DNA of 64,000 bases from Candidatus Falkowbacteria bacterium (GTDB lineage: Bacteria; Patescibacteriota; Patescibacteriia; JAACEG01). The notes beneath the pieces are model-generated. The model searched no databases, was not told the origin of the DNA, and saw only the letters and a list, made by a program, of their open reading frames with translations. Position numbers and translations under genes: made by a program. Within the stretch, counting starts at the first letter, position 1, and each line of letters starts with the position of its first letter. Shown here piece by piece: positions 5,168 to 27,379 of this stretch. Where the stretch lies: contig JABIDK010000014.1 of assembly GCA_018651725.1 (NCBI GenBank), forward strand, positions 70,625-134,624. Reading direction: 5' to 3'.

Positions 5168-8100
5168 ATGAAGAAAAAAGTTAAACAGTTTTACCGCATG
5201 ATTGATGGCATGGAATTTTGCTTCAATGTGGAGCACACAGAAACTTTGACCGATGCAGAATTAGGTCAATTAAAACTTTTATTTGCAGATGGCTTTATTG
5301 CTGAAACTGTTACAGAGAAACCAGGTATAGCAGATGAGGTAGTAGCTGAGGTTGGACCTCGGCTTAACTTTGAAACGGCTTGGTCGTCCAATATGGTTTC
5401 AATTTGTCATGCAACCGGCTTGGACAAAGTTACTCGCGTTGAGCGATCGAGGAGATATTTTGTTGATAACGATGTGAACAGACAAGAGTTTATTGATTCT
5501 CATCACGACAGGATGACAGAATGTCATTATCTTGAATCGCTTTCAACTTTTGATACCGGTATTGAACCCGAATCTGTGTACGATGTGGAACTTATTGATG
5601 GTGGAGCAGATCTTCTCGAGAGTATCCCTGGTATCTCCATGGATTCGCGGGATCGTAATTTTTACTACGATTACTTTGTAGGTAAGCATGAGCGTAACCC
5701 AACGATTGTAGAGATCATGGATCTGAATAATGCCAACTGTGAACATTCACGGCATGGTTATTTCAGAGGCAAGCATGTGATTAACGATGAAGAAATGGAC
5801 GAAACTCTTTTAGAGATCGTCCAATCAACTCTCGCGGGAAAGGAAGAAAATAGCATTATTGCTTACACGGATAACTCCAGCGGGATTTACGGCAGACCAA
5901 TTAATACAATTATACCGGAAAATCCTGGCTATCCATCCAAGTTTGAAAGCAGTTATCCAACTTATCATATTCTTTTTACCGCGGAAACTCATAATTTTCC
6001 AACCGGCGTGGCTCCTAAACCTGGAGCTGAAACCGGAACAGGTGGAAGAATTCGTGATATTCAGGGAACAGGAAAAGGCGGATTTGTAGTTGCCGGAACT
6101 GCTGGATATTGCGTGGCGAATTTGCATATTTCCGGATACGATCTTCCTTGGGAAGAACGGCTTGAATATCCGTCGAATTTGGCAAGCGCCCTGCAGATTG
6201 AAATTGAAGCCAGTAACGGTGCCTCCGACTATGGCAACAAATTTGGTGAACCGGTTATTCAAGGCTTTACTCATTCTTTTGATATGCGTTTTCCAAACAA
6301 TGAACGATGGGGATTTTTAAAACCCATCATGTTCACCGGCGGAATCGGTCAGATTGATGATCGACACATTGAAAAAGAAGAACAAGAAAAAGGAATGCTT
6401 ATCGTTCAAGTAGGCGGACCGGCCTATCGAGTTGGCTTTGGCGGTGGCGCGGCATCGAGTATGTTACAAGGTGACAACGTTGAAGATCTTGATTTTAACG
6501 CTGTTCAGCGTGGTAATGCTGAAATGGAGCAGAAGATGAATCGAGTTATTCGCGCTTGCAATGAAATGGGTGATAAAACTTTAATTGATGTCATTCATGA
6601 TCAGGGTGCCGGTGGTCCAGGCAATGTCTTAAAAGAACTGGTTGAAAAATCAGGTGGTTGGATTGAAATTCGCAGAATTAATGTTGGTGATCCAACTATG
6701 TCGGTGCTTGAGATTTATGTAGCTGAGTATCAGGAGCGAAACGGTTTTCTGATTTGCCCTGAGAATATTGAGCGTTTTCAAGCGATCTGTAATCGTGAAA
6801 AAGTCAACTGTGAAGTGTTGGGTGAAGTAACCGGTGACATGCGCTTTGTTGTTCGTGACGAACAAGATGGCTCAACCCCGGTTGATGTTGAACTGGACGT
6901 TGTTTTAGGGGATATTCCTCAAAAAACATTTGAAGCTGTTCATGTTGATCCGCACCTTAAACCATTAGTTTTGCCAGAAGAATTGACTGTGAAAGATGCG
7001 CTTCGCGATGTTTTACGTCTTATGTCTGTTGGTTCAAAGCGTTTTTTAACTAACAAAGTTGACCGAGCTGTGACCGGACTGGTTGCTCAGCAACAATGTT
7101 GCGGTCCTTTGCAGCTTTCGGTTGCTGACGTGGCTGTGATTGCGCAAAGCCATTTTGTAAAAAGTGGCGCAGCCACTGCAATTGGCGAACAACCAAATAA
7201 AATGTTGGTTGATCCGAAAGCAGGTGCGCGTATGGCCGTTGGTGAAGCTTTGACAAATCTGGTTTGGGCAAAAATCGATGACTTAGACAGTGTAAAATGT
7301 TCCGCTAACTGGATGTGGGCGCCAAAACTCCCAGGTGAGGGAGCGGCGCTTTATGATGCGGTTGATGAAATGCGTGGCTGTATGAAAAAACTTGGCGTTG
7401 CAGTTGACGGCGGTAAAGATAGTTTGTCAATGGCGACCCGCGTTGGTAAAGAGACTGTTAAATCTCCGCGACAACTTGTACTTTCAACATACGCAACTAT
7501 GTTGGATATCAACAAAGTTGTTACCCCGGATATTAAAAGACCGGGCGAAAGTCGAATACTTTTTATTGATCTTAGTAATGGAAAAAATCGATTGGGCGGA
7601 TCTGCTTTAGCGCAGGTTCATAAGCAAATCGGCAACGAATCTCCGGACATGGATGATCCGGATCTTATCAAACGAGCATTTCAAGCAACACAGGAACTGA
7701 TTGGCAGAGATATTATTCTTGCCGGTCACGATCGAAGTGATGGTGGATTTATAACCACTGTTCTGGAGATGGCTTTTGCTGGAAATTGCGGATTCGCAAT
7801 AGATGTAGCAAAAACAGACGATGTTCTGGCAACACTTTTTTCCGAAGAGCTTGGGTTGATTATTGAAGTTGCTAGTGAACAGGTAAAATTGGTTCAAGAA
7901 ACTTTTGATAATCACAGGGTTCCATGTATTGAAATTGGACATACCAAGAAAGAAAAACTCATAACGATTTTTTCTGATTCCGGTTTTGTCCTGTGGAAAG
8001 ACATGAGAGTGTTGCGTTCGTGGTGGGAAGAAAGTAGCTATCAACTTGAAAAACAACAGATGAACCCGGACTGCGCAAATGAAGAAAAGGAAAATATTTA

Positions 8101-8986
8101 TGATCGCAAAGGACCGAGTTATAATTTGAGTTTTACACCTCAAAAAACATCATCGGAAATTCTTCTGATGAACGATAAACCCAAAGTAGCAATTTTGCGT
8201 GACGAAGGCAGTAACTCCGATCGCGAGATGGCCTCGGCGTTTTATCAAGCCGGGTTTGAGCCATGGGATGTGACCATGACCGATCTGCTTGAAGACCGGA
8301 TTAATTTAGAACAATTTCGCGGTCTGGCTGCAGTTGGAGGTTTTTCCTACGCTGATGTCCCAGAAAGCGCTAAAGGCTGGGCAGCAACGATCATGTTTAA
8401 TGAAAAGTTAAAGGCGATGTTTAATGAATTTTATACTCGCCCCGATACTTTTTCATTAGGTGTGTGTAACGGTTGTCAGTTGTTTGCACTCATTGGCTGG
8501 GTTCCATGGCAAGGAATTGCGCCGGAGGACCAACCGCGATTTGTTAAAAATAAATCCGGTCGTTTTGAATCTCGCTGGTCAACAGTTAAAGTGCTGGAAA
8601 GCTCTTCAATTATGCTCAGTGGCATGGAAGATATGATATTTGGTATTCATGTTGACCATAGTGAAGGACAACTTGTTTTTCCAAACAAGGATGTTTTTAA
8701 AGAGGCAGCAACTAATCTCCAACTACCTGTTGCCTATGTTAATGACAACAATAAAATAACTGAAGATTACCCGTTTAATCCGAACGGATCTGCGAACGGA
8801 TTGACAGCCATTTGTACAGAAGACGGTCGTCATCTGGCAATGATGCCTCATCCGGAAAGATGCTTTCTGCCTTGGCAATGTCATTGGTTACCGGAAGAAA
8901 TGAAAGAAGAATTACGCCAAATTGGTGTGTCGCCTTGGATGAAAATGTTCCAAAATGCATACGATTGGTGTATAAAAGCTGAGTAA
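5168..8986 (+). CDS. purL: Phosphoribosylformylglycinamidine (FGAM) synthase, large single-chain form with a C-terminal glutaminase domain
   Basis: 1272 aa. The N-terminal and AIRS-like domains resemble E. coli PurL. The C-terminus has a class-I glutamine amidotransferase triad (GVCNGCQ ... HPE). The GC content is higher than in neighbouring genes. Confidence 0.9.
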   Translation: MKKKVKQFYRMIDGMEFCFNVEHTETLTDAELGQLKLLFADGFIAETVTEKPGIADEVVAEVGPRLNFETAWSSNMVSICHATGLDKVTRVERSRRYFVDNDVNRQEFIDSHHDRMTECHYLESLSTFDTGIEPESVYDVELIDGGADLLESIPGISMDSRDRNFYYDYFVGKHERNPTIVEIMDLNNANCEHSRHGYFRGKHVINDEEMDETLLEIVQSTLAGKEENSIIAYTDNSSGIYGRPINTIIPENPGYPSKFESSYPTYHILFTAETHNFPTGVAPKPGAETGTGGRIRDIQGTGKGGFVVAGTAGYCVANLHISGYDLPWEERLEYPSNLASALQIEIEASNGASDYGNKFGEPVIQGFTHSFDMRFPNNERWGFLKPIMFTGGIGQIDDRHIEKEEQEKGMLIVQVGGPAYRVGFGGGAASSMLQGDNVEDLDFNAVQRGNAEMEQKMNRVIRACNEMGDKTLIDVIHDQGAGGPGNVLKELVEKSGGWIEIRRINVGDPTMSVLEIYVAEYQERNGFLICPENIERFQAICNREKVNCEVLGEVTGDMRFVVRDEQDGSTPVDVELDVVLGDIPQKTFEAVHVDPHLKPLVLPEELTVKDALRDVLRLMSVGSKRFLTNKVDRAVTGLVAQQQCCGPLQLSVADVAVIAQSHFVKSGAATAIGEQPNKMLVDPKAGARMAVGEALTNLVWAKIDDLDSVKCSANWMWAPKLPGEGAALYDAVDEMRGCMKKLGVAVDGGKDSLSMATRVGKETVKSPRQLVLSTYATMLDINKVVTPDIKRPGESRILFIDLSNGKNRLGGSALAQVHKQIGNESPDMDDPDLIKRAFQATQELIGRDIILAGHDRSDGGFITTVLEMAFAGNCGFAIDVAKTDDVLATLFSEELGLIIEVASEQVKLVQETFDNHRVPCIEIGHTKKEKLITIFSDSGFVLWKDMRVLRSWWEESSYQLEKQQMNPDCANEEKENIYDRKGPSYNLSFTPQKTSSEILLMNDKPKVAILRDEGSNSDREMASAFYQAGFEPWDVTMTDLLEDRINLEQFRGLAAVGGFSYADVPESAKGWAATIMFNEKLKAMFNEFYTRPDTFSLGVCNGCQLFALIGWVPWQGIAPEDQPRFVKNKSGRFESRWSTVKVLESSSIMLSGMEDMIFGIHVDHSEGQLVFPNKDVFKEAATNLQLPVAYVNDNNKITEDYPFNPNGSANGLTAICTEDGRHLAMMPHPERCFLPWQCHWLPEEMKEELRQIGVSPWMKMFQNAYDWCIKAE

Positions 8987-10450: not shown

Positions 10451-11428
10451 ATGAAACTTAGAGGGATTGATTTTGGTAATGTTTTTTCGGCTTCAGGCAC
10501 TTTGAATAATTTTGGTGAGGGGTGGGAACCATTTCACAGTTTGAAGAAAAAACTTTCAGGATTTGATTTTACAGGGTCTACTTTTATTTCAAAAACTACA
10601 ACAATCGATTCGCGGATGGGAGAAAAAGAGAAAGAACAAGGTAATTTGGAACTTAATCCGCAGACATTGCAACCAGTAAAGTTATTTCCCGATTGTATTA
10701 AGGTTAATTGGAGAAAAGGCGAAGTTTTAAACGCTGTTGGGTTAAGCGGACCTGGATTTGAGACTCTGCTTAGAACGGGGCGTTGGCAAGAAATTAAACA
10801 ACCATTCTTTATCTCTTATATGGCTACTCGAGCAACTAAAGAGGAGCGATTAAAAGAGGATGAAGAATTTGTAAGATTGCTTTTGGAAAATATTGAAGAT
10901 TTTAAAACTAAAATTGGAATCCAGTTAAATATTTCCTGTCCAAACATAAAAGGTGATTTAACTAGCTTTATACATGAAACAGATGATCGTTTAAAAGTTT
11001 TAGCTCGTCTAAATATTCCAATTAGCGTTAAGATTAATGTTTTGACTCCTATTGAAGCCGTTCAGAAAATTATTGATGGTGGAAATTGTGACGCAATTGA
11101 AATTCCTAATACTTTGCCGTATGGGGAGTATCCTAGTATAGTAAATTGGGAAAAAAAATTTGGACTTGAATCACCATTAAAAAAATATGGTGGCGGAGGA
11201 TATTCAGGAAGAGAAAATTTTTTTCTAGCAGTAAATTGGACTAATAGAGCTAGGCGAGCTGGAATCAGTATTCCGATTATATGCGGAGCAGTTTCTAATA
11301 AGAGCGAGGTAGAGTTAGCGCATAGTGTTGATGCCAGTGGAATCGCCTTTGCTCGTCTATCTATAGTGCGACCATCGCAAGTAAAGCCAATAATTGATTG
11401 CGGAAAGTATATTTTTCGTGACAGGTAG
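10451..11428 (+). CDS. pyrD: Dihydroorotate dehydrogenase-like TIM-barrel flavoprotein (class 1 type)
   Basis: 325 aa. Blocks NVFSASGT, NAVGLSGPGFE, LNISCPN (catalytic Cys as in class 1A) and GGGGYSG align with L. lactis PyrDA. Confidence 0.6.
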   Translation: MKLRGIDFGNVFSASGTLNNFGEGWEPFHSLKKKLSGFDFTGSTFISKTTTIDSRMGEKEKEQGNLELNPQTLQPVKLFPDCIKVNWRKGEVLNAVGLSGPGFETLLRTGRWQEIKQPFFISYMATRATKEERLKEDEEFVRLLLENIEDFKTKIGIQLNISCPNIKGDLTSFIHETDDRLKVLARLNIPISVKINVLTPIEAVQKIIDGGNCDAIEIPNTLPYGEYPSIVNWEKKFGLESPLKKYGGGGYSGRENFFLAVNWTNRARRAGISIPIICGAVSNKSEVELAHSVDASGIAFARLSIVRPSQVKPIIDCGKYIFRDR

Positions 11429-20514: not shown

Positions 20515-21447
20515 ATGTCAACTCAAAATAAAATTCAAAAATTGATTACAGAGTTTTTAGAGTATTTAGAGATTGAACGGGGAGTGTCGCTTAAGACTAT
20601 CCGGAACTATAAGTTTTATTTGGAGAGGTTTGTTGGTTTTTTAGAAATTACTTCTCCTAGCCAAATTACTTTAGAGAGCGTGAAAAGATTTCGGCTTTGG
20701 CTAAACAGGCAGAAGAATTTTAAAGGTGATACTTTGAAGAAATCTACACAGAATTATCACTTGATTGCTATTCGAAATTTTTTAAAATATTTAGCTCGGT
20801 TAGATATAAAAAGTTTAGCTCCGGAAAAAATAGAACTATCAAAACTTGGTGAGCGAATAGTGGAGTTTTTAATAAAAGAAGATTTGGAGCGATTTTTAGA
20901 AGCTCCATTAAAAACAGATAACCTATCTATCATCAAAAAAAGAGATAAAGCGATCTTAGAACTGTTTTTTTCTACCGGACTTCGTGTTTCCGAACTTGCT
21001 AGTTTAACCAAAGAATCAATAAATTTAAAAAGAGACGAATTTACGATTCGAGGAAAGGGCGATAAACCTAGAATTGTTTTTTTATCTGAAGTAGCAAAAA
21101 AATATATTAAAGAGTATTTAGACATTAGGCCAGACATGAGCCCATATCTTTTTGTTCGTCACGATAAAGCTTCAAAGAGGATTCAGAACCAAGAAGATAA
21201 TTCTTTAACTCCAAGATCAATCGAAAGGTTAGTTCAAAAATACGCGCGTCTTGCCGGTATTACCAAAAAAGTGACTCCGCACACAATTCGGCACAGTTTT
21301 GCCACTGATTTATTATATAACGGAGCTGACATCAGAAGCGTGCAGTCTATGCTCGGGCACTCTTCAATCACAACAACTCAAATCTACACTCATATTACAA
21401 ACAGACAGTTAAAAGAAGTCCACAAAAAATTTCACGATAAAAAATAA
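20515..21447 (+). CDS. xerC: Tyrosine recombinase of the XerC/XerD (phage integrase) family
   Basis: 310 aa with an N-terminal SAM-like domain. The catalytic box is R..HTIRHSFAT...GHSSITTTQIYTH. Confidence 0.85.
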   Translation: MSTQNKIQKLITEFLEYLEIERGVSLKTIRNYKFYLERFVGFLEITSPSQITLESVKRFRLWLNRQKNFKGDTLKKSTQNYHLIAIRNFLKYLARLDIKSLAPEKIELSKLGERIVEFLIKEDLERFLEAPLKTDNLSIIKKRDKAILELFFSTGLRVSELASLTKESINLKRDEFTIRGKGDKPRIVFLSEVAKKYIKEYLDIRPDMSPYLFVRHDKASKRIQNQEDNSLTPRSIERLVQKYARLAGITKKVTPHTIRHSFATDLLYNGADIRSVQSMLGHSSITTTQIYTHITNRQLKEVHKKFHDKK

Positions 21448-21448
21448 G

Positions 21449-22288
21449 ATGAAACAAGCCTACTTTATTTTTACAATTTTAATTTGCTTGCCCCTTATCG
21501 GGGTTTTTATTTTTCAGAATAATAACTTTGATAAAGAGCTTGTTTTAATGTACGATGAATTACTTTTTGATTTTGAGAAGCTGGCGAAGACAAGCTTAAA
21601 GCCTGATCAGGTTTTAGATAAAAAAATTGAGAATACGTCCGAAGACGAAAACAAAAAAGATGAAAACATTAAAGAAAAAGAAGAAAAAATCGAGTTTGAA
21701 GTTTTACCAAATAAAATTCATTACAACGTTCCTTTTACCTCGCAAGCCCCATTTCGTGATTGGAGTTATCCGTGGCAAGAGTTTTGTGAGGAGGCAGCGG
21801 TTTTGATTACTATGAGATATTTTGATGGTCGGGGAATTAAAGATAAAGATGATGCTAATGATGCTTTGCAGGAAATTATGAAATGGGAAAATGAAAACCT
21901 TGGTTTTTATAAAGATACAACTGCGACAACAACTATGAAAATCATTACTGATTTTTACGAATATGATAATGTAGAATTAAGTCATGACACAACAATAGAA
22001 AAAATAAAACAAGAATTAGCTAAAGGTAATTTAATCATAATTCCAACGGCCGGGCGTAATTTGGAAAACCCATATTTTACTCCACCTGGACCGATTTATC
22101 ATAATTTAGTGTTAGTAGGCTACGATAATGAAAAACAAATTTTTTACACCAACGACCCCGGAATAATGAGCGGTAAAGATTTTAAGTACAGTTATAAAAA
22201 TATAATAGAATCAATAGCTGATTGGAGCTACGAGAAAGAAACTATTGATAAATCAAGAAAAGTTATGATAATTGTGCGAGGTGGTTAA
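21449..22288 (+). CDS. Secreted peptidase C39-like domain protein
   Basis: 279 aa with an N-terminal transmembrane/signal segment. Cys (QEFCEEAAV) and His (HNLVLVGYD) spacing is as in Peptidase_C39_2-type proteins. Confidence 0.5.
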   Translation: MKQAYFIFTILICLPLIGVFIFQNNNFDKELVLMYDELLFDFEKLAKTSLKPDQVLDKKIENTSEDENKKDENIKEKEEKIEFEVLPNKIHYNVPFTSQAPFRDWSYPWQEFCEEAAVLITMRYFDGRGIKDKDDANDALQEIMKWENENLGFYKDTTATTTMKIITDFYEYDNVELSHDTTIEKIKQELAKGNLIIIPTAGRNLENPYFTPPGPIYHNLVLVGYDNEKQIFYTNDPGIMSGKDFKYSYKNIIESIADWSYEKETIDKSRKVMIIVRGG

Positions 22289-22360: not shown

Positions 22361-24337
22361 ATGGAAAATCCAAATTTTTTAAAACAAAAATACAACTTAC
22401 ACAACACTCCGGAAGCAGATTCAGCCGCCAAAAGAACAAAAAAAAGAACAGGCGAAAAAGTTTCTCAAAAGCCGGGCGAGAAAATACAGAATTATTTAGA
22501 TAGATTCAATGAAATTATCGAACGCAAAGATCCGGACAAAAAAGAACGAGGCATTGGAGCGCTTAAAAGAATACTCCATAATAAATTTGTTCTTAAAGAG
22601 GATGAGATTCCGCAAACATATTACAATTTACAAGGCGAAATCGCCGTAGAGGAAGGCAGGACACAGGAGCTTATTGATAGTGGCGTAGAAATAGAAAATA
22701 AAAAAACTAAAAACAAGAAAGGTGAAGAAATTGAAGAAAAAGAATTTATTTTTCCAAATAAGATAAAAAAGGAATTATCAGAAGTCATTATTGCCGATCA
22801 AGAAAGCACTATGGATAACTGGATTGATTATTTATCATCAGATGATGCTCAATATCCTGATTGGCTTAAGTATTATGCTTTTCGAAATATGCTTAACTTA
22901 GGTAAATACGACAAGGAAAGAAAAAAGTTTCCGCCAAGAGAGCTTCCTGACCGCTCGGATAAGCCAAAGAAAAAAGAAAATTTAACCACCGCCCCTTTTC
23001 CCGACTTAAATCGTGAAGCCCTGGCTTATGTTTTGGATGCAATCGAAAAGAAGCATAAAAAAGAAGGCATTAACCTGGAATTCCAAGACGAAGAAGAAAA
23101 AAATAATTTTCAAAAAATACTTCAAGGAGAAAATTTTGCCAAGCTCTACGCCTGGGCGATTGAAAAAGTAACTCCGGCCTCACAAGAAGTCTTGGAAACC
23201 GTCAAGGGCAAATGGATAAAATACGACCAAGGCACAGATCATATGCCTTTGGTTAACTCTCTCCAGGGCCACGGCACTGGCTGGTGCACAGCCGGAGAAT
23301 CAACTGCTCGGACCCAATTACAAGGAGGAGATTTTTATGTTTTTTACTCTGAAGATGAAAATAATAATCCAATTATTCCTCGCGCCGCTATCAGAATGGA
23401 GGGGCAAAGCAAAATAGCCGAAGTAAGAGGCATTGCCCATGAGCAGAACTTAGACGCTCATATCACAGATACGGTTAAAGAAAAAGTGAGCGAATTCGGA
23501 GAAGAGGGCAAAAAATACGAGAAAAAATCAAAAGACATGAAGCACTTGACTGAAATAGAAAATAAAACTAAAAATAACCAAGAATTAACTAAGGATAATT
23601 TAATTTTTCTCTATGAGATAGATGACCCTATTGAAGGCTTTGGCTACCAAAGAGATCTAAGAATCGAAGAAATCCGAAAGATAAGAGACACGGAAAAAGA
23701 TGCATCTATTGTTTTTGAATGCGACTCAAATCAAATCGCCAAAAACATAAGCGAAATAAACGAAAACACCGAAGCCTATATCGGAGAGTGGGATCCAAGT
23801 ATCTATCAAGAAATCAGAAAATACCCAAACATCAAACATCTTTACGAATCTTTTCCGGATAAAAAGATATTCAAGATGAATTTGGAGACTGATCCAAGTA
23901 TCAATTCTCCTCAAACCGCCCTAGAAGCGCTGGAAGGCGAAAATATATATTTAACAAACTGGGCAAAGGATATTTTAAAAGAAACTAAGTTCAGTAAAGA
24001 AAAACAAAACCAAAACCACGAATTAGTCAGATTTACAGTTAAAGAGCTTGGATTTCCAAACGGAGCAACAACCAAAGAAATTTACGATAAACTAGAAGAG
24101 CTTGGGCTGGATCTTTGCCCAACTGAAACAGGACCACAGCTCAGGCTAAAGTATCCGGGCAAAGAGTGGATGTTGATTGCCATGGAACCGATTGCCGACT
24201 CCGATGGCGATCCGGACGTGTTCGATCTGCGCGGGGCTTACGGGCAGCTGGGGCTCCTTGCCCATGACGCTCGGCCCGGCGACAGGTGGCGTCCAGGCGA
24301 CAGGTTCGTCTTCCGTCCCCGCAAGTTGGATTCTTAG
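22361..24337 (+). CDS. DGR target protein; C-terminal about 45 aa form the variable region
   Basis: 658 aa. The 3' 135 nt are a GC-rich repeat with a near-identical copy 476 nt downstream (the TR). The C-terminus ...RGAYGQLGLLAHDARPGDRWRPGDRFVFRPRK resembles the end of a C-type-lectin-fold VR. No N-terminal signal peptide is visible. Confidence 0.7.
   Translation: MENPNFLKQKYNLHNTPEADSAAKRTKKRTGEKVSQKPGEKIQNYLDRFNEIIERKDPDKKERGIGALKRILHNKFVLKEDEIPQTYYNLQGEIAVEEGRTQELIDSGVEIENKKTKNKKGEEIEEKEFIFPNKIKKELSEVIIADQESTMDNWIDYLSSDDAQYPDWLKYYAFRNMLNLGKYDKERKKFPPRELPDRSDKPKKKENLTTAPFPDLNREALAYVLDAIEKKHKKEGINLEFQDEEEKNNFQKILQGENFAKLYAWAIEKVTPASQEVLETVKGKWIKYDQGTDHMPLVNSLQGHGTGWCTAGESTARTQLQGGDFYVFYSEDENNNPIIPRAAIRMEGQSKIAEVRGIAHEQNLDAHITDTVKEKVSEFGEEGKKYEKKSKDMKHLTEIENKTKNNQELTKDNLIFLYEIDDPIEGFGYQRDLRIEEIRKIRDTEKDASIVFECDSNQIAKNISEINENTEAYIGEWDPSIYQEIRKYPNIKHLYESFPDKKIFKMNLETDPSINSPQTALEALEGENIYLTNWAKDILKETKFSKEKQNQNHELVRFTVKELGFPNGATTKEIYDKLEELGLDLCPTETGPQLRLKYPGKEWMLIAMEPIADSDGDPDVFDLRGAYGQLGLLAHDARPGDRWRPGDRFVFRPRKLDS
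24191..24325 (+). repeat. DGR variable repeat (VR)
   Basis: About 135 nt. It aligns with 24667..24801 with roughly 22 differences. In every one the TR base is A and the VR base is G, C or T. Confidence 0.8.
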
Positions 24338-24386
24338 AAACTTTGAACCTTTGTATTTTTTGAAATTTGGACACTTTGACATTTTT

Positions 24387-24408
24387 CCGCCGCCAGAGGC
24401 GGTCGCTG
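24387..24408 (+). other. GC-rich hairpin (CCGCC-AGA-GGCGG) downstream of VR
   Basis: TCCGCCGCCAGAGGCGGTCGC sits in an AT-rich spacer about 60 nt after the VR end. It is a candidate DGR-associated stem-loop. Confidence 0.3.
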
Positions 24409-24666
24409 TAATTTTTAAGATTGACGATATTTTGCTATAATGAAATTAGCTTGATTTTATCAGGCGGTTACGGCTTCCTGAGATTTGGCTGGCAAATATG
24501 GATTTAGAGTGCAAGCGGCCATGGCTTTTTGCAGAGTGATTTATATTTTGTCTTTAAAAAAGAAATTAACTTTGTGTATCGCGCTAAGGCATTTAAGATG
24601 TCGGATAAAATACAGCCAGATCTTTTTTGCATCAGGTCGGCAGTGGCAAATGGAGGTGCGATATAC

Positions 24667-24801
24667 ATTACCGACTCCGATGGCGATCCGAACGTGTTCA
24701 ATCTGAACGAGAATAACGGGCAGCTGAAGCTCAATGCCAATGACGCTAAGCCCGGCAACAGGTGGAATCAAGGCAACAGGTTCGTCTTCCGTCCCCGAAA
24801 G
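24667..24801 (+). repeat. DGR template repeat (TR)
   Basis: It is rich in AAC/AAT codons (aac gtg ttc aat ctg aac gag aat aac ...). All mismatches to the VR fall at TR adenines. Confidence 0.8.
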
Positions 24802-24819
24802 TCGTTTCTTTTTCCGCGG

Positions 24820-25224
24820 TTACCTAAAATTGCGGTTTTTCTTTTCAAAGTTTTTTAGACTATTTTTCCAACCCCCAAACATTTTACCGATTTCATCCAA
24901 CTTGAAAACAATTTCTTCATATTGTTTATTTGAAATAAATTTTGCTTCCCAAGCAACATGAATCAAAAATTTAAGCGTATCTAAAATAAGGATACACTTT
25001 GAAATTTTATCCATCTTCGTTTCTTTTTTAGAAAAATATGCGATATAGGAAATTTCAAGCAAATCAAGAAATTTATTTTCAATTCTAGCGCCAATGGTAA
25101 AGCGCGCAGTTTTCTTAATATGAGGAACAATATTAATCCAAATCAAATATCCCTCTTTGATGCGTTGCAAAATAGAAGATTTATCGAGAGAGAGAGAGAG
25201 AGAGAGAGTAAAAGGCTTCGCCAT
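24820..25224 (-). CDS. avd: Avd-like accessory variability determinant (four-helix-bundle protein, TIGR02436/23S-IVS family)
   Basis: 134 aa. ...IVPHIKKTARFTIGARIENKFLDLLEISYIA...FKLDEIGKMFGGW aligns with Bordetella phage bAvd (...IPRKHGVAREMFLKCLLGQVEL...IAEVGRILGSW). It is one of only two minus-strand genes in the window. Confidence 0.7.
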   Translation of the reverse strand: MAKPFTLSLSLSLDKSSILQRIKEGYLIWINIVPHIKKTARFTIGARIENKFLDLLEISYIAYFSKKETKMDKISKCILILDTLKFLIHVAWEAKFISNKQYEEIVFKLDEIGKMFGGWKNSLKNFEKKNRNFR

Positions 25225-26193
25225 ATTTACAATAATATCATTTCTTTTGATAATTTGCTAATTTCCTGGCAGGAATTTTTGCGAGGGAAAAGAAAAAGAA
25301 AGGATGTCGCGGAATTTCAACTTAATTTTAGTGATAACGTTTTACAGCTTCATCATAATCTTCAAAATAAGACATATAATCATGGTGCTTACCAGGCGTT
25401 TAAAATAAACGATCCGAAGCCAAGAAATATCCATAAAGCTAGCGTGCGAGATCGGATGGTACATCACGCGATTTATAGAATTCTATATCCTTATTTTGAT
25501 AGAAAATTTATTTATGATTCTTATTCTTGTAGAATTAATAAAGGGACACATAGGGCAATAAATAGATTTCGGGATTTTAGCTATAAAGTTTCAAAAAATA
25601 ATATCCGTATTTGTTGGATTTTAAAATGCGACATCAAAAAATTTTTTGCCAGCATTGATCATAAAATTTTGAAAGATATTTTAGAAAAATATATAGCGGA
25701 CAAAAACGCTTTGTGGTTGCTCTTGCGAGTTATAGATAGTTTTAGCAGTAAAAATAAAATAGGAGTCGGCTTGCCGCTTGGAAATTTAACTTCACAACTT
25801 TTAGTAAATATTTATATGAACGAGTTTGACCAGTTTATGAAGCGTGAAATTAAAGCAAAATATTATATCCGCTATGCCGATGATTTTGTTATAATAAGTG
25901 AAAATAAAAAATATTTGGAGGATCTTATTCCAAAAATTTCAAAATTTCTTGAAGAAAAATTAAAGCTCTCACTTCATCCAAATAAATTATTTATCAAAAC
26001 GTTAAATTCCGGAGTTGATTTTTTGGGTTGGGTTAATTTTTCTTATCATCGGGTATTGAGGACGACAACAAAAAGGAGAATGATTAAAAAAGTTACATTG
26101 AAACATAATACGGAATCAATTGCTTCATATTTAGGAATGCTTTCGCATGGAGATGCTTATAAGCTTTCCGAAGAAATTTTATCTAATTTATAA
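25120..26193 (+). CDS. DGR reverse transcriptase (bounds of the ORF from the first ATG; the real start is probably near 25225-25255)
   Basis: LISWQEFLRGKRKRK...KPRNIHKASVRDRMVHHA...SYSCRINKGTHRA...GLPLGNLTSQLLVNIYMNEFD...IRYADDFVII is collinear with Bordetella phage Brt, including the YxDD box. Homology to Brt begins at about codon 36 of the ORF, and there is no in-frame ATG there. Confidence 0.8.
   Translation: MRNNINPNQISLFDALQNRRFIERERERESKRLRHIYNNIISFDNLLISWQEFLRGKRKRKDVAEFQLNFSDNVLQLHHNLQNKTYNHGAYQAFKINDPKPRNIHKASVRDRMVHHAIYRILYPYFDRKFIYDSYSCRINKGTHRAINRFRDFSYKVSKNNIRICWILKCDIKKFFASIDHKILKDILEKYIADKNALWLLLRVIDSFSSKNKIGVGLPLGNLTSQLLVNIYMNEFDQFMKREIKAKYYIRYADDFVIISENKKYLEDLIPKISKFLEEKLKLSLHPNKLFIKTLNSGVDFLGWVNFSYHRVLRTTTKRRMIKKVTLKHNTESIASYLGMLSHGDAYKLSEEILSNL
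25186..25208. repeat. (GA)11 dinucleotide microsatellite, which is (TC)11 on the avd coding strand
   Basis: gagagagagagagagagagagag read directly. It encodes LSLSLSL at codons 7-13 of avd, and ERERERE in the upstream extension of the RT ORF. Confidence 0.95.
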
Positions 26194-26270
26194 TTAAAAT
26201 AAATTTATAATTGAAGTCAAAGCACCTCATTTTATTCGTTGATTAACAGATTTGGTCATATTAGTTGGTA

Positions 26271-26299
26271 TTGACATTTAGCTAAAATTGTGCTAAATT
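26271..26299 (+). promoter_or_regulatory. Sigma70-like promoter upstream of tRNA-Arg
   Basis: TTGACA, a 17-nt spacer, then TAAATT preceded by an extended TG. It lies 14 nt upstream of the tRNA. Confidence 0.4.
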
Positions 26300-26312
26300 G
26301 TTTTTATTGTTT

Positions 26313-26384
26313 GCGCCCGTAGTTCAACGGATAGAACACCAGCCTTCTAAGCTGGTTATGGGGGTTCGATTCCCTCCGGGCGTA
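26313..26384 (+). tRNA. tRNA-Arg (anticodon TCT)
   Basis: Manual cloverleaf. Acceptor GCGCCCG/CGGGCGT, D-stem GTTC/GAAC, anticodon stem CCAGC/GCTGG with loop CTTCTAA, T-arm GGGGG-TTCGATT-CCCTC. 72 nt, no encoded CCA. Confidence 0.85.
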
Positions 26385-26454
26385 CTGAGTATTTTATAAA
26401 ACGGTAGAGCGATAAGAATAACCACAAACCGTTGACTTTACATTTTATATTTTA

Positions 26455-26943
26455 GTGGTATACTTAATATGTATGTCGCAAACAAAATGTAAAATTTGTC
26501 AAAAAGAGTTTTATATTAGGCCTAGTCGTTTAAAGATTGGTTGGGGAAAATATTGCTCAATTAAATGTAGAAACGTTTCACAGCGAACAGGACGATATCT
26601 TTTTTGCGCAGTATGTAAGAAGAAAATATGGAAAACTCCCAAAGAAGAAAGATGTTCAAAGAGCGGAAAATTTTTTTGTAATAAATCTTGTCAAACAAAA
26701 TGGAGAAATAAATATTATTCTAGAGAAAAACACCATTTTTGGATTAATGGTAAAAATGTTTATCGGACAATAATGTTAGAGCAAAAAGATAAGCCAGTTT
26801 GTAAAAAATGTAAAGTTAAAGATGTTAGAGTTTTAGTGGTTCATCACAAGGATCATGATAGGGAAAATAATAAAATAAATAATTTAATGTGGTTATGCAG
26901 AAATTGTCATCATTTAGTACATATTCACGATAAAAAAGTTTAA
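26455..26943 (+). CDS. HNH endonuclease with N-terminal CxxC zinc ribbons
   Basis: 162 aa. It has multiple CxxC pairs and a C-terminal HHKDHDRENNKINNLMWLCRNCHHLVH HNH box. Confidence 0.7.
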   Translation: MVYLICMSQTKCKICQKEFYIRPSRLKIGWGKYCSIKCRNVSQRTGRYLFCAVCKKKIWKTPKEERCSKSGKFFCNKSCQTKWRNKYYSREKHHFWINGKNVYRTIMLEQKDKPVCKKCKVKDVRVLVVHHKDHDRENNKINNLMWLCRNCHHLVHIHDKKV

Positions 26944-26951
26944 TATATCAT

Positions 26952-27025
26952 GGCGGGGTTGGTGAAATTGGTTATCACTCGAGTTTGTGGTACTCGCGTC
27001 ACGGGTTCAAATCCCGTACCTCGCC
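26952..27025 (+). tRNA. tRNA-His (anticodon GTG) with encoded G-1
   Basis: Manual fold. G-1, acceptor GCGGGGT/ACCTCGC (one G:U), D-stem GTGA/TCAC, anticodon stem CGAGT/ACTCG with loop TTGTGGT, T-arm ACGGG-TTCAAAT-CCCGT, discriminator C. Confidence 0.8.
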
Positions 27026-27040
27026 CAGAATTTATAACAT

Positions 27041-27379
27041 ATGATTATTTTAAATTGGTTGATAATGGCTTTGTCAATTTTAATTGCAGCCTATATTGTG
27101 CCAGGGGTAACAATCAGTGGGATTTGGGCGGCTTTGTGGCTGGCGATATTTTTAGCTTTAGTTAATGTTATTTTAAAACCGCTTTTAATTTTAATAACTT
27201 TGCCGATTAATATTTTAACTTTAGGACTTTTTACTTTTGTTATAAATGCTTTGTTAATTTTATTATCATCAACTGTTATAAAAGGTTTTGAAGTTAGTGG
27301 ATTTTTAGCAGCAATATTATTTAGTATTTTGCTTTCAATTATTAGTTATATTTTAGGAGCTTTGATTAAGACAAAATAG
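27041..27379 (+). CDS. Small 4-TM membrane protein, phage-holin-4-like (DUF360/YvlD-type)
   Basis: 112 aa. The Gly/Ala/Leu/Pro pattern (IVPGVTISGIWAALWLAIFLALVNVILKPLL...LTLGLFTF) is typical of the family. Confidence 0.45.
   Translation: MIILNWLIMALSILIAAYIVPGVTISGIWAALWLAIFLALVNVILKPLLILITLPINILTLGLFTFVINALLILLSSTVIKGFEVSGFLAAILFSILLSIISYILGALIKTK

Follow-up and report, generated by a model that had tools for sequence, protein, structure and literature searches.

A chromosomal diversity-generating retroelement of a Candidatus Falkowbacteria bacterium with a conserved leader RNA and a candidate phase-variation repeat in its mutagenesis genes

We analyzed a 64-kb stretch of DNA (contig JABIDK010000014.1; hereafter, the window) from a Candidatus Falkowbacteria bacterium, a member of the candidate phyla radiation (CPR/Patescibacteria), and found that positions 22361–26193 very probably constitute a complete chromosomal diversity-generating retroelement (DGR), for which we also propose a mechanism. 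The element is laid out as target–TR–(avd)–RT, that is, a target gene ending in a variable repeat (VR), a template repeat (TR), the accessory gene avd and a reverse transcriptase (RT) gene. An earlier note, made from the letters of the sequence, had recognised the signature of DGR mutagenic homing here; this reading is supported by an adenine-only repeat pair at the 3′ end of an open reading frame (ORF), a bAvd match, an RT resembling the Bordetella phage enzyme bRT, a predicted C-type-lectin fold and a second target allele. Beyond the element as such, we tentatively propose, at slightly less than even confidence, that the DGR is itself a contingency locus, in which a GA or poly-G repeat read on both strands would form a heritable and reversible switch, and that its RNA scaffold has moved to a 223-nt 5′ leader.

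Results

The variable and template repeats differ only at template adenines

The two repeats were identified with a repeat finder and compared base by base. The VR (24191–24326) and the TR (24667–24802), both on the plus strand, align without gaps over 136 nt at an offset of 476 and an identity of 84%, and their similarity breaks off sharply at 24190/24666 on one side and at 24326/24802 on the other. All 22 mismatches fall on positions at which the TR has an adenine, the VR carrying G at 12 of them, C at 8 and T at 2; the remaining 17 of the 39 TR adenines are unaltered in the VR. The probability that all 22 mismatches would fall on adenines by chance is 4 × 10⁻¹⁵ (hypergeometric). The central observation of the earlier note, that the copies differ at TR adenines only, is thereby borne out: the alignment contains no mismatch at a non-adenine TR position, each of the 16 codon changes listed in the note is correct, and the two flanks quoted in it are the same in both copies. 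Its GC figures have to be amended, in that the ~60% given for the repeats holds only as the mean of 67.6% for the VR and 52.9% for the TR, and the 32% given for the genome becomes 34.0% for the window.

The adenine-only pattern, taken together with the cassette order TR–(avd)–RT, identifies the upstream copy as the VR and the downstream copy as the TR. The VR spans codons 611–655 of the 658-codon target ORF, i.e., its C-terminal end, and the mutagenised part of the VR (24191–24321, plus strand) carries 21 differences, all at TR adenines. The template part of the TR (24667–24797, plus strand), which is followed by an end resembling IMH* (24798–24802), the TR counterpart of the initiation of mutagenic homing (IMH) element, contains 36 adenines distributed over 23 codons, ten of which are AAY, and thus allows for ~3 × 10²⁰ protein variants. 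A scan of both strands of the window, in which every TR adenine was replaced by N, yielded no further VR-like copy.

A fixed base difference lies at the 3′ boundary of the repeats

The mutagenised part of the VR ends in an adenine-free block of 19 nt, GGTTCGTCTTCCGTCCCCG (24303–24321, plus strand), which is identical to TR positions 24779–24797. Because it contains no adenine, this block can never be mutated and, in its behavior, corresponds to the invariant homology portion of the IMH; in related loci, the stretch just before the IMH-distinguishing base is free of VR/TR mismatches in 19 of the 22 shown. The next base distinguishes the two copies, being C24322 in the VR and A24798 in the TR, and is followed by AAGT (24322–24326, plus strand), after which homology ends. 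A TR ending in GAAAG or GAAAC is found in 19 related loci; in every one of them, the VR reads CGCAAGT and the TR reads CGAAAGT or CGAAACT, and three related loci are reversed at the boundary base, with C in the TR and A in the VR. Since the A-to-C difference is constant in all 19 comparable loci, it is a fixed, clade-wide IMH/IMH* difference and not a product of random mutagenesis, which leaves 21 mismatches attributable to mutagenesis. Both boundary codons encode arginine, and protein-level selection is therefore no explanation for the fixed base. As judged from these alignments, the VR would thus end as is characteristic of DGRs, with an invariant block and then an IMH that differs from the IMH* of the TR, and base 24322/24798 would mark where the transfer of information stops. 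The earlier note had likened the invariant 3′ flank to an IMH/IMH* pair, which holds for the block 24303–24321; it had counted the distinguishing base itself, the next one along, as mutagenesis, and this part does not stand.

The cassette encodes Avd and a bRT-like reverse transcriptase

Downstream of the TR, avd and the RT gene are arranged divergently and overlap head to head at 25120–25224. The avd accessory gene (24820–25224, minus strand) lies 18 bases past the TR and encodes 134 amino acids at the 11 units of a simple-sequence repeat that the window carries; its product matches PF22296 (bAvd) at E = 2.3 × 10⁻¹⁵ and 57.4 bits, against a cut-off of 40. The RT gene (25120–26193, plus strand) encodes 357 amino acids from ATG 25120 and matches RVT_1 at E = 2 × 10⁻²⁴. 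Residues 31–340 of the RT align to residues 3–302 of Bordetella phage bRT (PDB 8ub7_A) at E = 7.2 × 10⁻⁴³, with LGNLTSQ aligned to IGSLTSQ and YADD to YMDD. The homology to bRT starts at KRLRH, right after the GA repeat, with no canonical start codon between the two, and the RT leader peptide MRNNxNPNQISLFD is conserved in relatives, including those without a repeat; we therefore place the start of the RT at ATG 25120. The cassette order, TR (+), avd (−) and RT (+), is that of Architecture B3 of Wu et al. 2018, who define TR–(avd)–RT under this name and speak of a “CPR set”.

The target is a predicted soluble protein with a C-terminal lectin-fold domain

The target gene (22361–24337, plus strand) is an ORF of 658 amino acids, deposited at NCBI as MBT4277746.1, a hypothetical protein of Candidatus Falkowbacteria (assembly GCA_018656705.1). 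Sequence searches against Pfam, NCBIfam and PDB returned no match for the protein, and a “PcfJ-like” identity found no support in these searches. The best 19-residue Kyte–Doolittle mean is 0.34; as there is no hydrophobic segment, the target is predicted to be soluble and to be without a classical secretion signal. More than 3127 homologues, of ~610–630 residues and all unnamed, are present in the protein collection, and relatives are found in 295 species-level genomes across many CPR lineages. In the structural model, the VR maps to a predicted C-type-lectin-fold domain at the C-terminus (24003–24334, plus strand; approximately residues 548–658), with a β-α-α-β4 arrangement; this is the fold of the solved DGR variable proteins TvpA (Treponema denticola) and Mtd. 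Foldseek searches of PDB with the full-length target model gave weak lectin matches only (E ~0.4–0.8).

A second allele and related loci point to diversification in nature

Two target alleles were compared, that of the window and that encoding P0001, the closest database protein, which comes from a JGI contig of 192 kb on which the genes stand in the same order. The proteins share 645 of 658 residues: residues 1–612 are identical, and the 13 differences are confined to the last 46 residues, where all 13 coincide with TR-adenine codons. Four of these changes concern codons at which the window VR is still identical to the TR (GAC, GAT, CAG and AGG). That all 13 changes stand at TR-adenine codons argues for diversification in nature, and the lack of changes elsewhere indicates that this diversification is more recent than any other divergence in the gene. 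An exact-pattern scan of metagenome contigs yielded no additional VR alleles. The same bias extends to 25 related loci with a recognisable VR/TR pair and the same layout, in which 510 mismatches fall on TR adenines versus 11 elsewhere; pooled over 22 of these loci, the spectrum comprises 254 A-to-G, 107 A-to-T and 90 A-to-C changes.

A conserved structured RNA precedes the template repeat

The interval from the target gene to the TR was aligned across 22 loci, and a structure was derived from 20 non-redundant loci. The alignment revealed a conserved structured leader RNA of 223 nt (24444–24666, plus strand), which ends where the TR begins and follows an extended −10 box, TGCTATAAT (24433–24441, plus strand); this TGnTATAAT/TATACT box occupies the same column in nearly all of the 22 loci and is the putative promoter of the TR RNA. 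The plus-strand leader folds into helices P1 (24460–24469 with 24472–24481), P2 (24495–24504 with 24538–24547), P3 (24510–24520 with 24523–24533) and P4 (24574–24585 with 24655–24666), and its A-rich segment 24556–24565 is single-stranded. P4, a long-range helix of 12 bp, encloses the short hairpins P4a, P4b and P4c and closes exactly at the TR boundary; 8 of its 12 pairs covary, and both of its strands lie upstream of the TR.

RNAalifold predicted 63 pairs in the leader, 43 of them with compensatory double changes. Standard pairs were formed in 94.4% of the cells, versus 40–47% when the partners were slid by 1–3 columns, and two-sided changes were present in 212 cells, versus 31–57 in the slid controls; none of 500 shuffles attained the observed value on any measure. 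Many G-U pairs at nearly invariant leader positions are compatible with the plus (TR) strand only. An nhmmer profile of the leader matched 34 sources, with 28 full-length and 6 partial matches, the latter mostly at contig ends. Each of the 28 full-length matches is on the same strand as the TR and ends within a few nucleotides of its start, and target-bearing loci with at least 6 kb of downstream sequence and no RT or Avd have no leader, except for a partial remnant in the locus that we label L028. Single-sequence folding gave no useful signal for the TR RNA region (z = −0.04). Searches with Rfam returned nothing in 24000–27200 at E-values up to 1, apart from two tRNAs and a sub-threshold antisense match on one of them; across the whole window, the two tRNAs were the only hits at gathering scores, RT-associated motifs being among the models searched.

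On the 3′ side of the TR, an 11-nt U/C-rich linker is followed by a hairpin, CCGCGGTT-ACCTAA-AATTGCGG (24814–24835), and by the conserved GGTTTTTCTTTT (24834–24845), whose GG closes the stem; the whole element (24814–24845, plus strand) was called as terminator-like. It has 8 pairs, a 6-nt loop and a downstream U-tract, its stem covaries across loci, and it is a candidate for an Avd-binding stem-loop, for the terminator of the TR RNA, or for both. The only helix predicted between the upstream and downstream sides of the TR (24482–24485 with 24834–24837) has 4 pairs, with a two-sided change at one of them in a single sequence. Two further duplexes were rejected. Pairing of the A-rich leader segment with U-rich tracts around the 3′ hairpin was not significantly better for cognate than for non-cognate combinations, and a template:primer duplex between ACUU in the leader and AAGU at the TR end was likewise not significant, the GAAACU loci having no compensating change (125/2000 and 405/2000 permutations in the cognate versus non-cognate tests).

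A simple-sequence repeat sets the reading frames of avd and RT

The overlap of avd and RT contains a (GA)11 simple-sequence repeat (25186–25207; (GA)11.5 at 25186–25208 according to Tandem Repeats Finder), a candidate phase-variation switch that encodes (LS)n in avd and (ER)n in RT. On the minus strand, it makes up avd codons 7–13, MAKPFT-LSLSLSL-DKSSILQRIKEGY. Same-strain assemblies, which are ≥99.94% identical over 8 kb, carry 11 units (the window, L081 and L082) or 10 units (L083 and L084), and gene callers report avd with 134 or 108 residues, following the repeat length. When the number of units was changed in silico, both genes were on with 8, 11 or 14 units; with 7, 10 or 13 units, avd was off and RT readable only from the alternative-frame ATG 25160; and with 9, 12 or 15 units, both genes were off. 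ATG 25160 lies upstream of the repeat in the other frame, and many RT homologues in the database begin with a peptide that matches its product, MILCRIEALL....

Comparable tracts recur among relatives. At the same codons, 17 of 26 related avd genes have (CT)5–18.5 or C9–10, with the conserved ATG in frame in 8 and out of frame in 9. The lengths observed include 5, 8.5, 9, 9.5, 10.5, 11.5, 13, 13.5, 15.5 and 18.5 units and G8–G10 (relatives with the repeat: L002, L011–L013, L029, L030, L038, L051, L053, L060, L061, L066, L067, L075 and L079), and one pair of loci, L012 and L013, which are 92.7% identical, differ as G8 versus G9 between identical flanks. Both genes could be scored in 18 loci, of which 8 were on/on, 5 had RT in the alternative frame with avd off and 5 were off/off; the combination of avd on and RT off was never encountered. 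Across 785 kb of 80 related loci, such repeats number 18 in total. Of the RT homologue clusters, the 60 best were compared: in 44, (ER)n or GGG is encoded immediately ahead of the bRT-like N-terminus, and across all 60, 28 carry the conserved leader peptide in frame and 13 the alternative-frame leader, the other 19 being shorter forms. Loci that are out of frame retain full-length RT alignments and diversified VRs and hence do not resemble decayed pseudogenes.

These comparisons suggest that the RT may tolerate two of the three repeat phases and avd one. A repeat tract that sets the frame, is polymorphic within the lineage and leaves loci in mixed on and off states is what defines contingency genes, and the pattern here appears to be a signature of slipped-strand phase variation acting on the mutagenesis machinery itself.

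Other features of the locus and of its relatives

The VR is immediately followed, at 24333–24381 on the plus strand (24326–24386 according to Tandem Repeats Finder), by an array of degenerate CTTWGA repeats that recur every ~8 nt. DGR loci have on average 2.6 CTTWGA motifs per 120 nt, versus 1.15 in loci with no VR/TR pair nearby. The array may, speculatively, be a target-site element with a role in target recognition; at this site, the DGR of the Bordetella phage BPP-1 has a GC-rich inverted repeat downstream of the IMH. A GC hairpin read from the sequence, CCGCC-GCCAGA-GGCGG (24387–24402, plus strand), with a T run within ~12 nt downstream, is likely the terminator of the target gene, and similar GC hairpins are present at the same position in several related loci.

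Within a distance of 6 kb, many target homologues are accompanied by neither an RT nor an Avd gene nor a TR (L004–L010, L023, L027, L037, L040, L048, L050, L071, L072, L078 and others). They still end in a VR-like, diversified-looking sequence that is not rich in asparagine, followed by CGCAAGT; these homologues may be remote targets that a cassette at another site of the genome diversifies in trans, or their cassette may have been lost. Individual loci depart from the common layout in other ways: L001 (~1970–2430) has avd, RT and the 3′ hairpin and is missing the TR and leader; L003 has two leader copies (7992–8219 and 11098–11325), and 200 nt at the 3′ end of its target gene are exactly duplicated; and L028 has a partial leader (7975–8159) and no RT. 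Beside truncated target homologues, L056 (2489–2617 and 3212–3340) and L063 (7043–7168 and 7516–7641) carry a different adenine-only VR/TR pair, with the VR peptide WQRPGG..VP.L.DW....RFAAVR and no RT detectable with the window RT as query, which is probably a second type of DGR. Several contigs with CPR-type cassettes (L001, L003, L010, L012, L013, L016, L018 and others) are titled Gammaproteobacteria, Ignavibacteriaceae, Muribaculaceae or Bdellovibrionales in third-party assemblies, probably through errors of binning or labelling.

A XerC/D-like tyrosine recombinase (20515–21447) and a Peptidase_C39_2-like protein (21449–22288) are encoded directly upstream of the target gene. The RT gene is followed, within 26313–27379, by tRNA-Arg(TCT), an ORF with a weak HNH_3 match (26455–26943), tRNA-His(GTG) and a Phage_holin_4_2-like ORF. 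A functional link between the target and its neighbours (integrase, C39-like peptidase, arginyl-tRNA synthetase (ArgRS) and MgsA) was considered and dropped, because the neighbours are not conserved in related loci.

Discussion

The evidence assembled above describes a DGR with all of its parts, and we propose that it works as follows. The sequence features are observed; the steps that connect them we infer from the Bordetella phage paradigm. A noncoding RNA would be transcribed from the extended −10 promoter at 24433–24441 and would comprise the 223-nt leader, the 136-nt TR and the 3′ hairpin with its U-tract. RT and Avd would bind this RNA and copy the TR from its 3′ end into cDNA, misincorporating at the 36 template adenines. 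The cDNA would then replace the VR at 24191–24321, with the adenine-free block 24303–24321 as anchor and the fixed difference 24322/24798 as boundary. Up to 23 codons, ten of them AAY, could be recoded in this way in the C-terminal part of the lectin-fold domain of the soluble 658-residue target, for ~3 × 10²⁰ proteins. The length of the (GA)n tract, lying as it does in both the avd and RT frames, would probably switch the mutagenesis machinery on and off by slipped-strand changes.

Several points weigh against this account. Transcription, priming and homing are themselves inferred. Avd scores 66 bits (E = 3 × 10⁻¹⁸) against NCBIfam NF033474, the DGR Avd model, which is below the curated cut-off of 80, and a generic promoter scan did not call the box at 24433–24441. 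The changes in the P0001 allele are known at the protein level only. The window VR allele was found unaltered on 17 contigs from several samples, which makes it the dominant allele; its turnover may be slow, or it may be under selection. Finally, differences in repeat length between assemblies could in principle be assembly artefacts.

How far do these points favor other explanations? The dominance of one VR allele would suit a fossil cassette, in which the VR was diversified in the past by an element that no longer works, as would the same-strain assemblies whose repeat length puts avd out of frame and the decayed cassettes among relatives, such as L001, which lacks the TR and leader, and L028, in which the leader is partial and the RT missing. 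However, in the window, avd and RT are intact and in frame with conserved start codons, the TR, leader RNA and hairpin are likewise intact, and the second allele shows 13 residue changes at TR-adenine codons with none elsewhere in 612 residues; we consider a fossil highly improbable. An ordinary diverged direct repeat, arising through partial gene duplication or as a gene conversion tract with no reverse transcription, deserves practically no weight: nothing speaks for it beyond the 136-nt direct repeat itself, and it is refuted by a mismatch spectrum in which a single base in one of the copies accounts for all 22 differences, besides the dedicated RT and Avd genes next to the repeats and the recurrence of the pattern in 25 independent loci. 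It also seems improbable, if less extremely so, that the RNA at 24444–24666 is an independent small RNA or a 5′ untranslated region element standing outside the DGR template RNA. That no pairing of the leader with sequence 3′ of the TR is statistically supported would agree with such independence, but the 28 full-length matches all end a few nucleotides from the TR start on the same strand, the RNA is absent from target loci with at least 6 kb of downstream sequence and no RT or Avd, bar the remnant in L028, and P4 closes exactly at the TR boundary.

The GA repeat calls for a more even assessment, as it might be a tolerated low-complexity linker or assembly noise, with Avd and RT translated whatever its length. 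Only two repeat lengths are known in the window strain, both from short-read assemblies; the RT has an alternative start in a second frame (ATG 25160); and the Pfam bAvd match starts at residue 29, past the repeat, such that a shorter Avd from a downstream start could still fold. Yet a pure linker would change by 3 units, whereas the actual lengths do not, and about half of them put the conserved ATG out of frame. Two repeat chemistries, GA and poly-G, occur at one spot, and such repeats are nearly absent elsewhere, as the 18 in 785 kb attest. Each repeat length in the window strain is backed by two independent assemblies, L012 and L013 differ as G8 versus G9 with identical flanks, and no canonical start codon separates the repeat from the bRT-homologous N-terminus. 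On balance, we regard a linker or noise as unlikely, while taking it as a serious minority possibility, and continue to favor a switch.

The element shares much with the prototype DGR of BPP-1 (mtd–avd–TR–brt): A-specific TR-to-VR differences, a C-terminal VR in a C-type-lectin-fold protein, Avd, an RT homologous to bRT, an invariant adenine-free block with an IMH/IMH* difference at the 3′ end, and a stem-loop just past the TR. It differs in the placing of avd, which follows the TR, is encoded on the opposite strand and overlaps the beginning of the RT gene; in the long structured RNA, which lies 5′ of the TR here and 3′ of it in BPP-1 (the Sp region); and in the helix abutting the TR on its 5′ side, for which two upstream strands pair with each other, whereas that of BPP-1 pairs an upstream with a downstream strand. 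Moreover, the window element is located in the chromosome of a CPR bacterium, not in a phage, and its target has no recognisable tail-fibre or membrane features.

In the Bordetella phage, the Sp segment 3′ of the TR contains the RNA elements to which Avd and RT bind, as well as those that present the primer and halt the polymerase, the stop duplex being formed by Sp and sequence just upstream of the TR (Handa et al.). The survey of the same authors, which took in 40 nt before and 100 nt after the TR, found the Avd-binding stem-loop, typically with 9 pairs and a tetraloop, in 207 of 278 DGRs, CPR examples included (Handa et al.). The window RNA is similar in having a stem-loop ~11 nt past the TR, the site reported for the Avd-binding one, and a 12-bp helix at the position of the cPRT Stop duplex, and differs in that its stem has 8 pairs with a 6-nt loop and that the stop-like helix draws its partner strand from the leader. 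The cPRT Stop duplex proper, which pairs sequences upstream and downstream of the TR, was not found at the window locus, where P4 pairs two upstream strands. Our reading is that, in B3-type CPR elements, the leader may have taken over most of the RNA scaffold.

DGRs are already known to be abundant in CPR, and the window element on its own is one more catalogued element of modest interest. CPR/Patescibacteria DGRs were reportedly treated by Paul and colleagues in 2017. The window element agrees with DGRs of this group in its host, in its TR–(avd)–RT core and in a target without transmembrane or known domains, with no difference in kind, and CPR-restricted DGR clades (clade 2) with domain-less targets have been described (Roux et al. 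2021). In the DGR literature searched, we did not find a description of the leader RNA, the fixed boundary base, the bidirectional repeat or the CTTWGA array, all of which appear from the alignments to be clade-wide features. Nor did we find, in a literature search that was itself incomplete, any work linking DGRs or Avd with such repeats.

The repeat also invites comparison with the contingency loci of Neisseria, Haemophilus and Campylobacter, with which it shares a dinucleotide or homopolymer tract in the 5′ coding region, a length that varies within a strain and a mixture of on and off states. Unlike in those loci, a single repeat is shared by two genes that overlap divergently and read it from opposite strands, these genes encode a mutagenesis machine and not a surface antigen or restriction system, and the hosts are uncultured CPR bacteria.

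The locus is a starting point for work on the regulation and RNA architecture of DGRs. A repeat that sets the frames of Avd and RT offers a concrete hypothesis for how DGR activity may be restrained. The conserved RNA on the other side of the template bears on how general the RNA architecture of BPP-1 is, and thereby on priming and on the engineering of compact DGRs. Lastly, with homologues in at least 295 CPR species, many of them diversified, the target draws attention to the role that a soluble lectin-fold protein may play in CPR cells.

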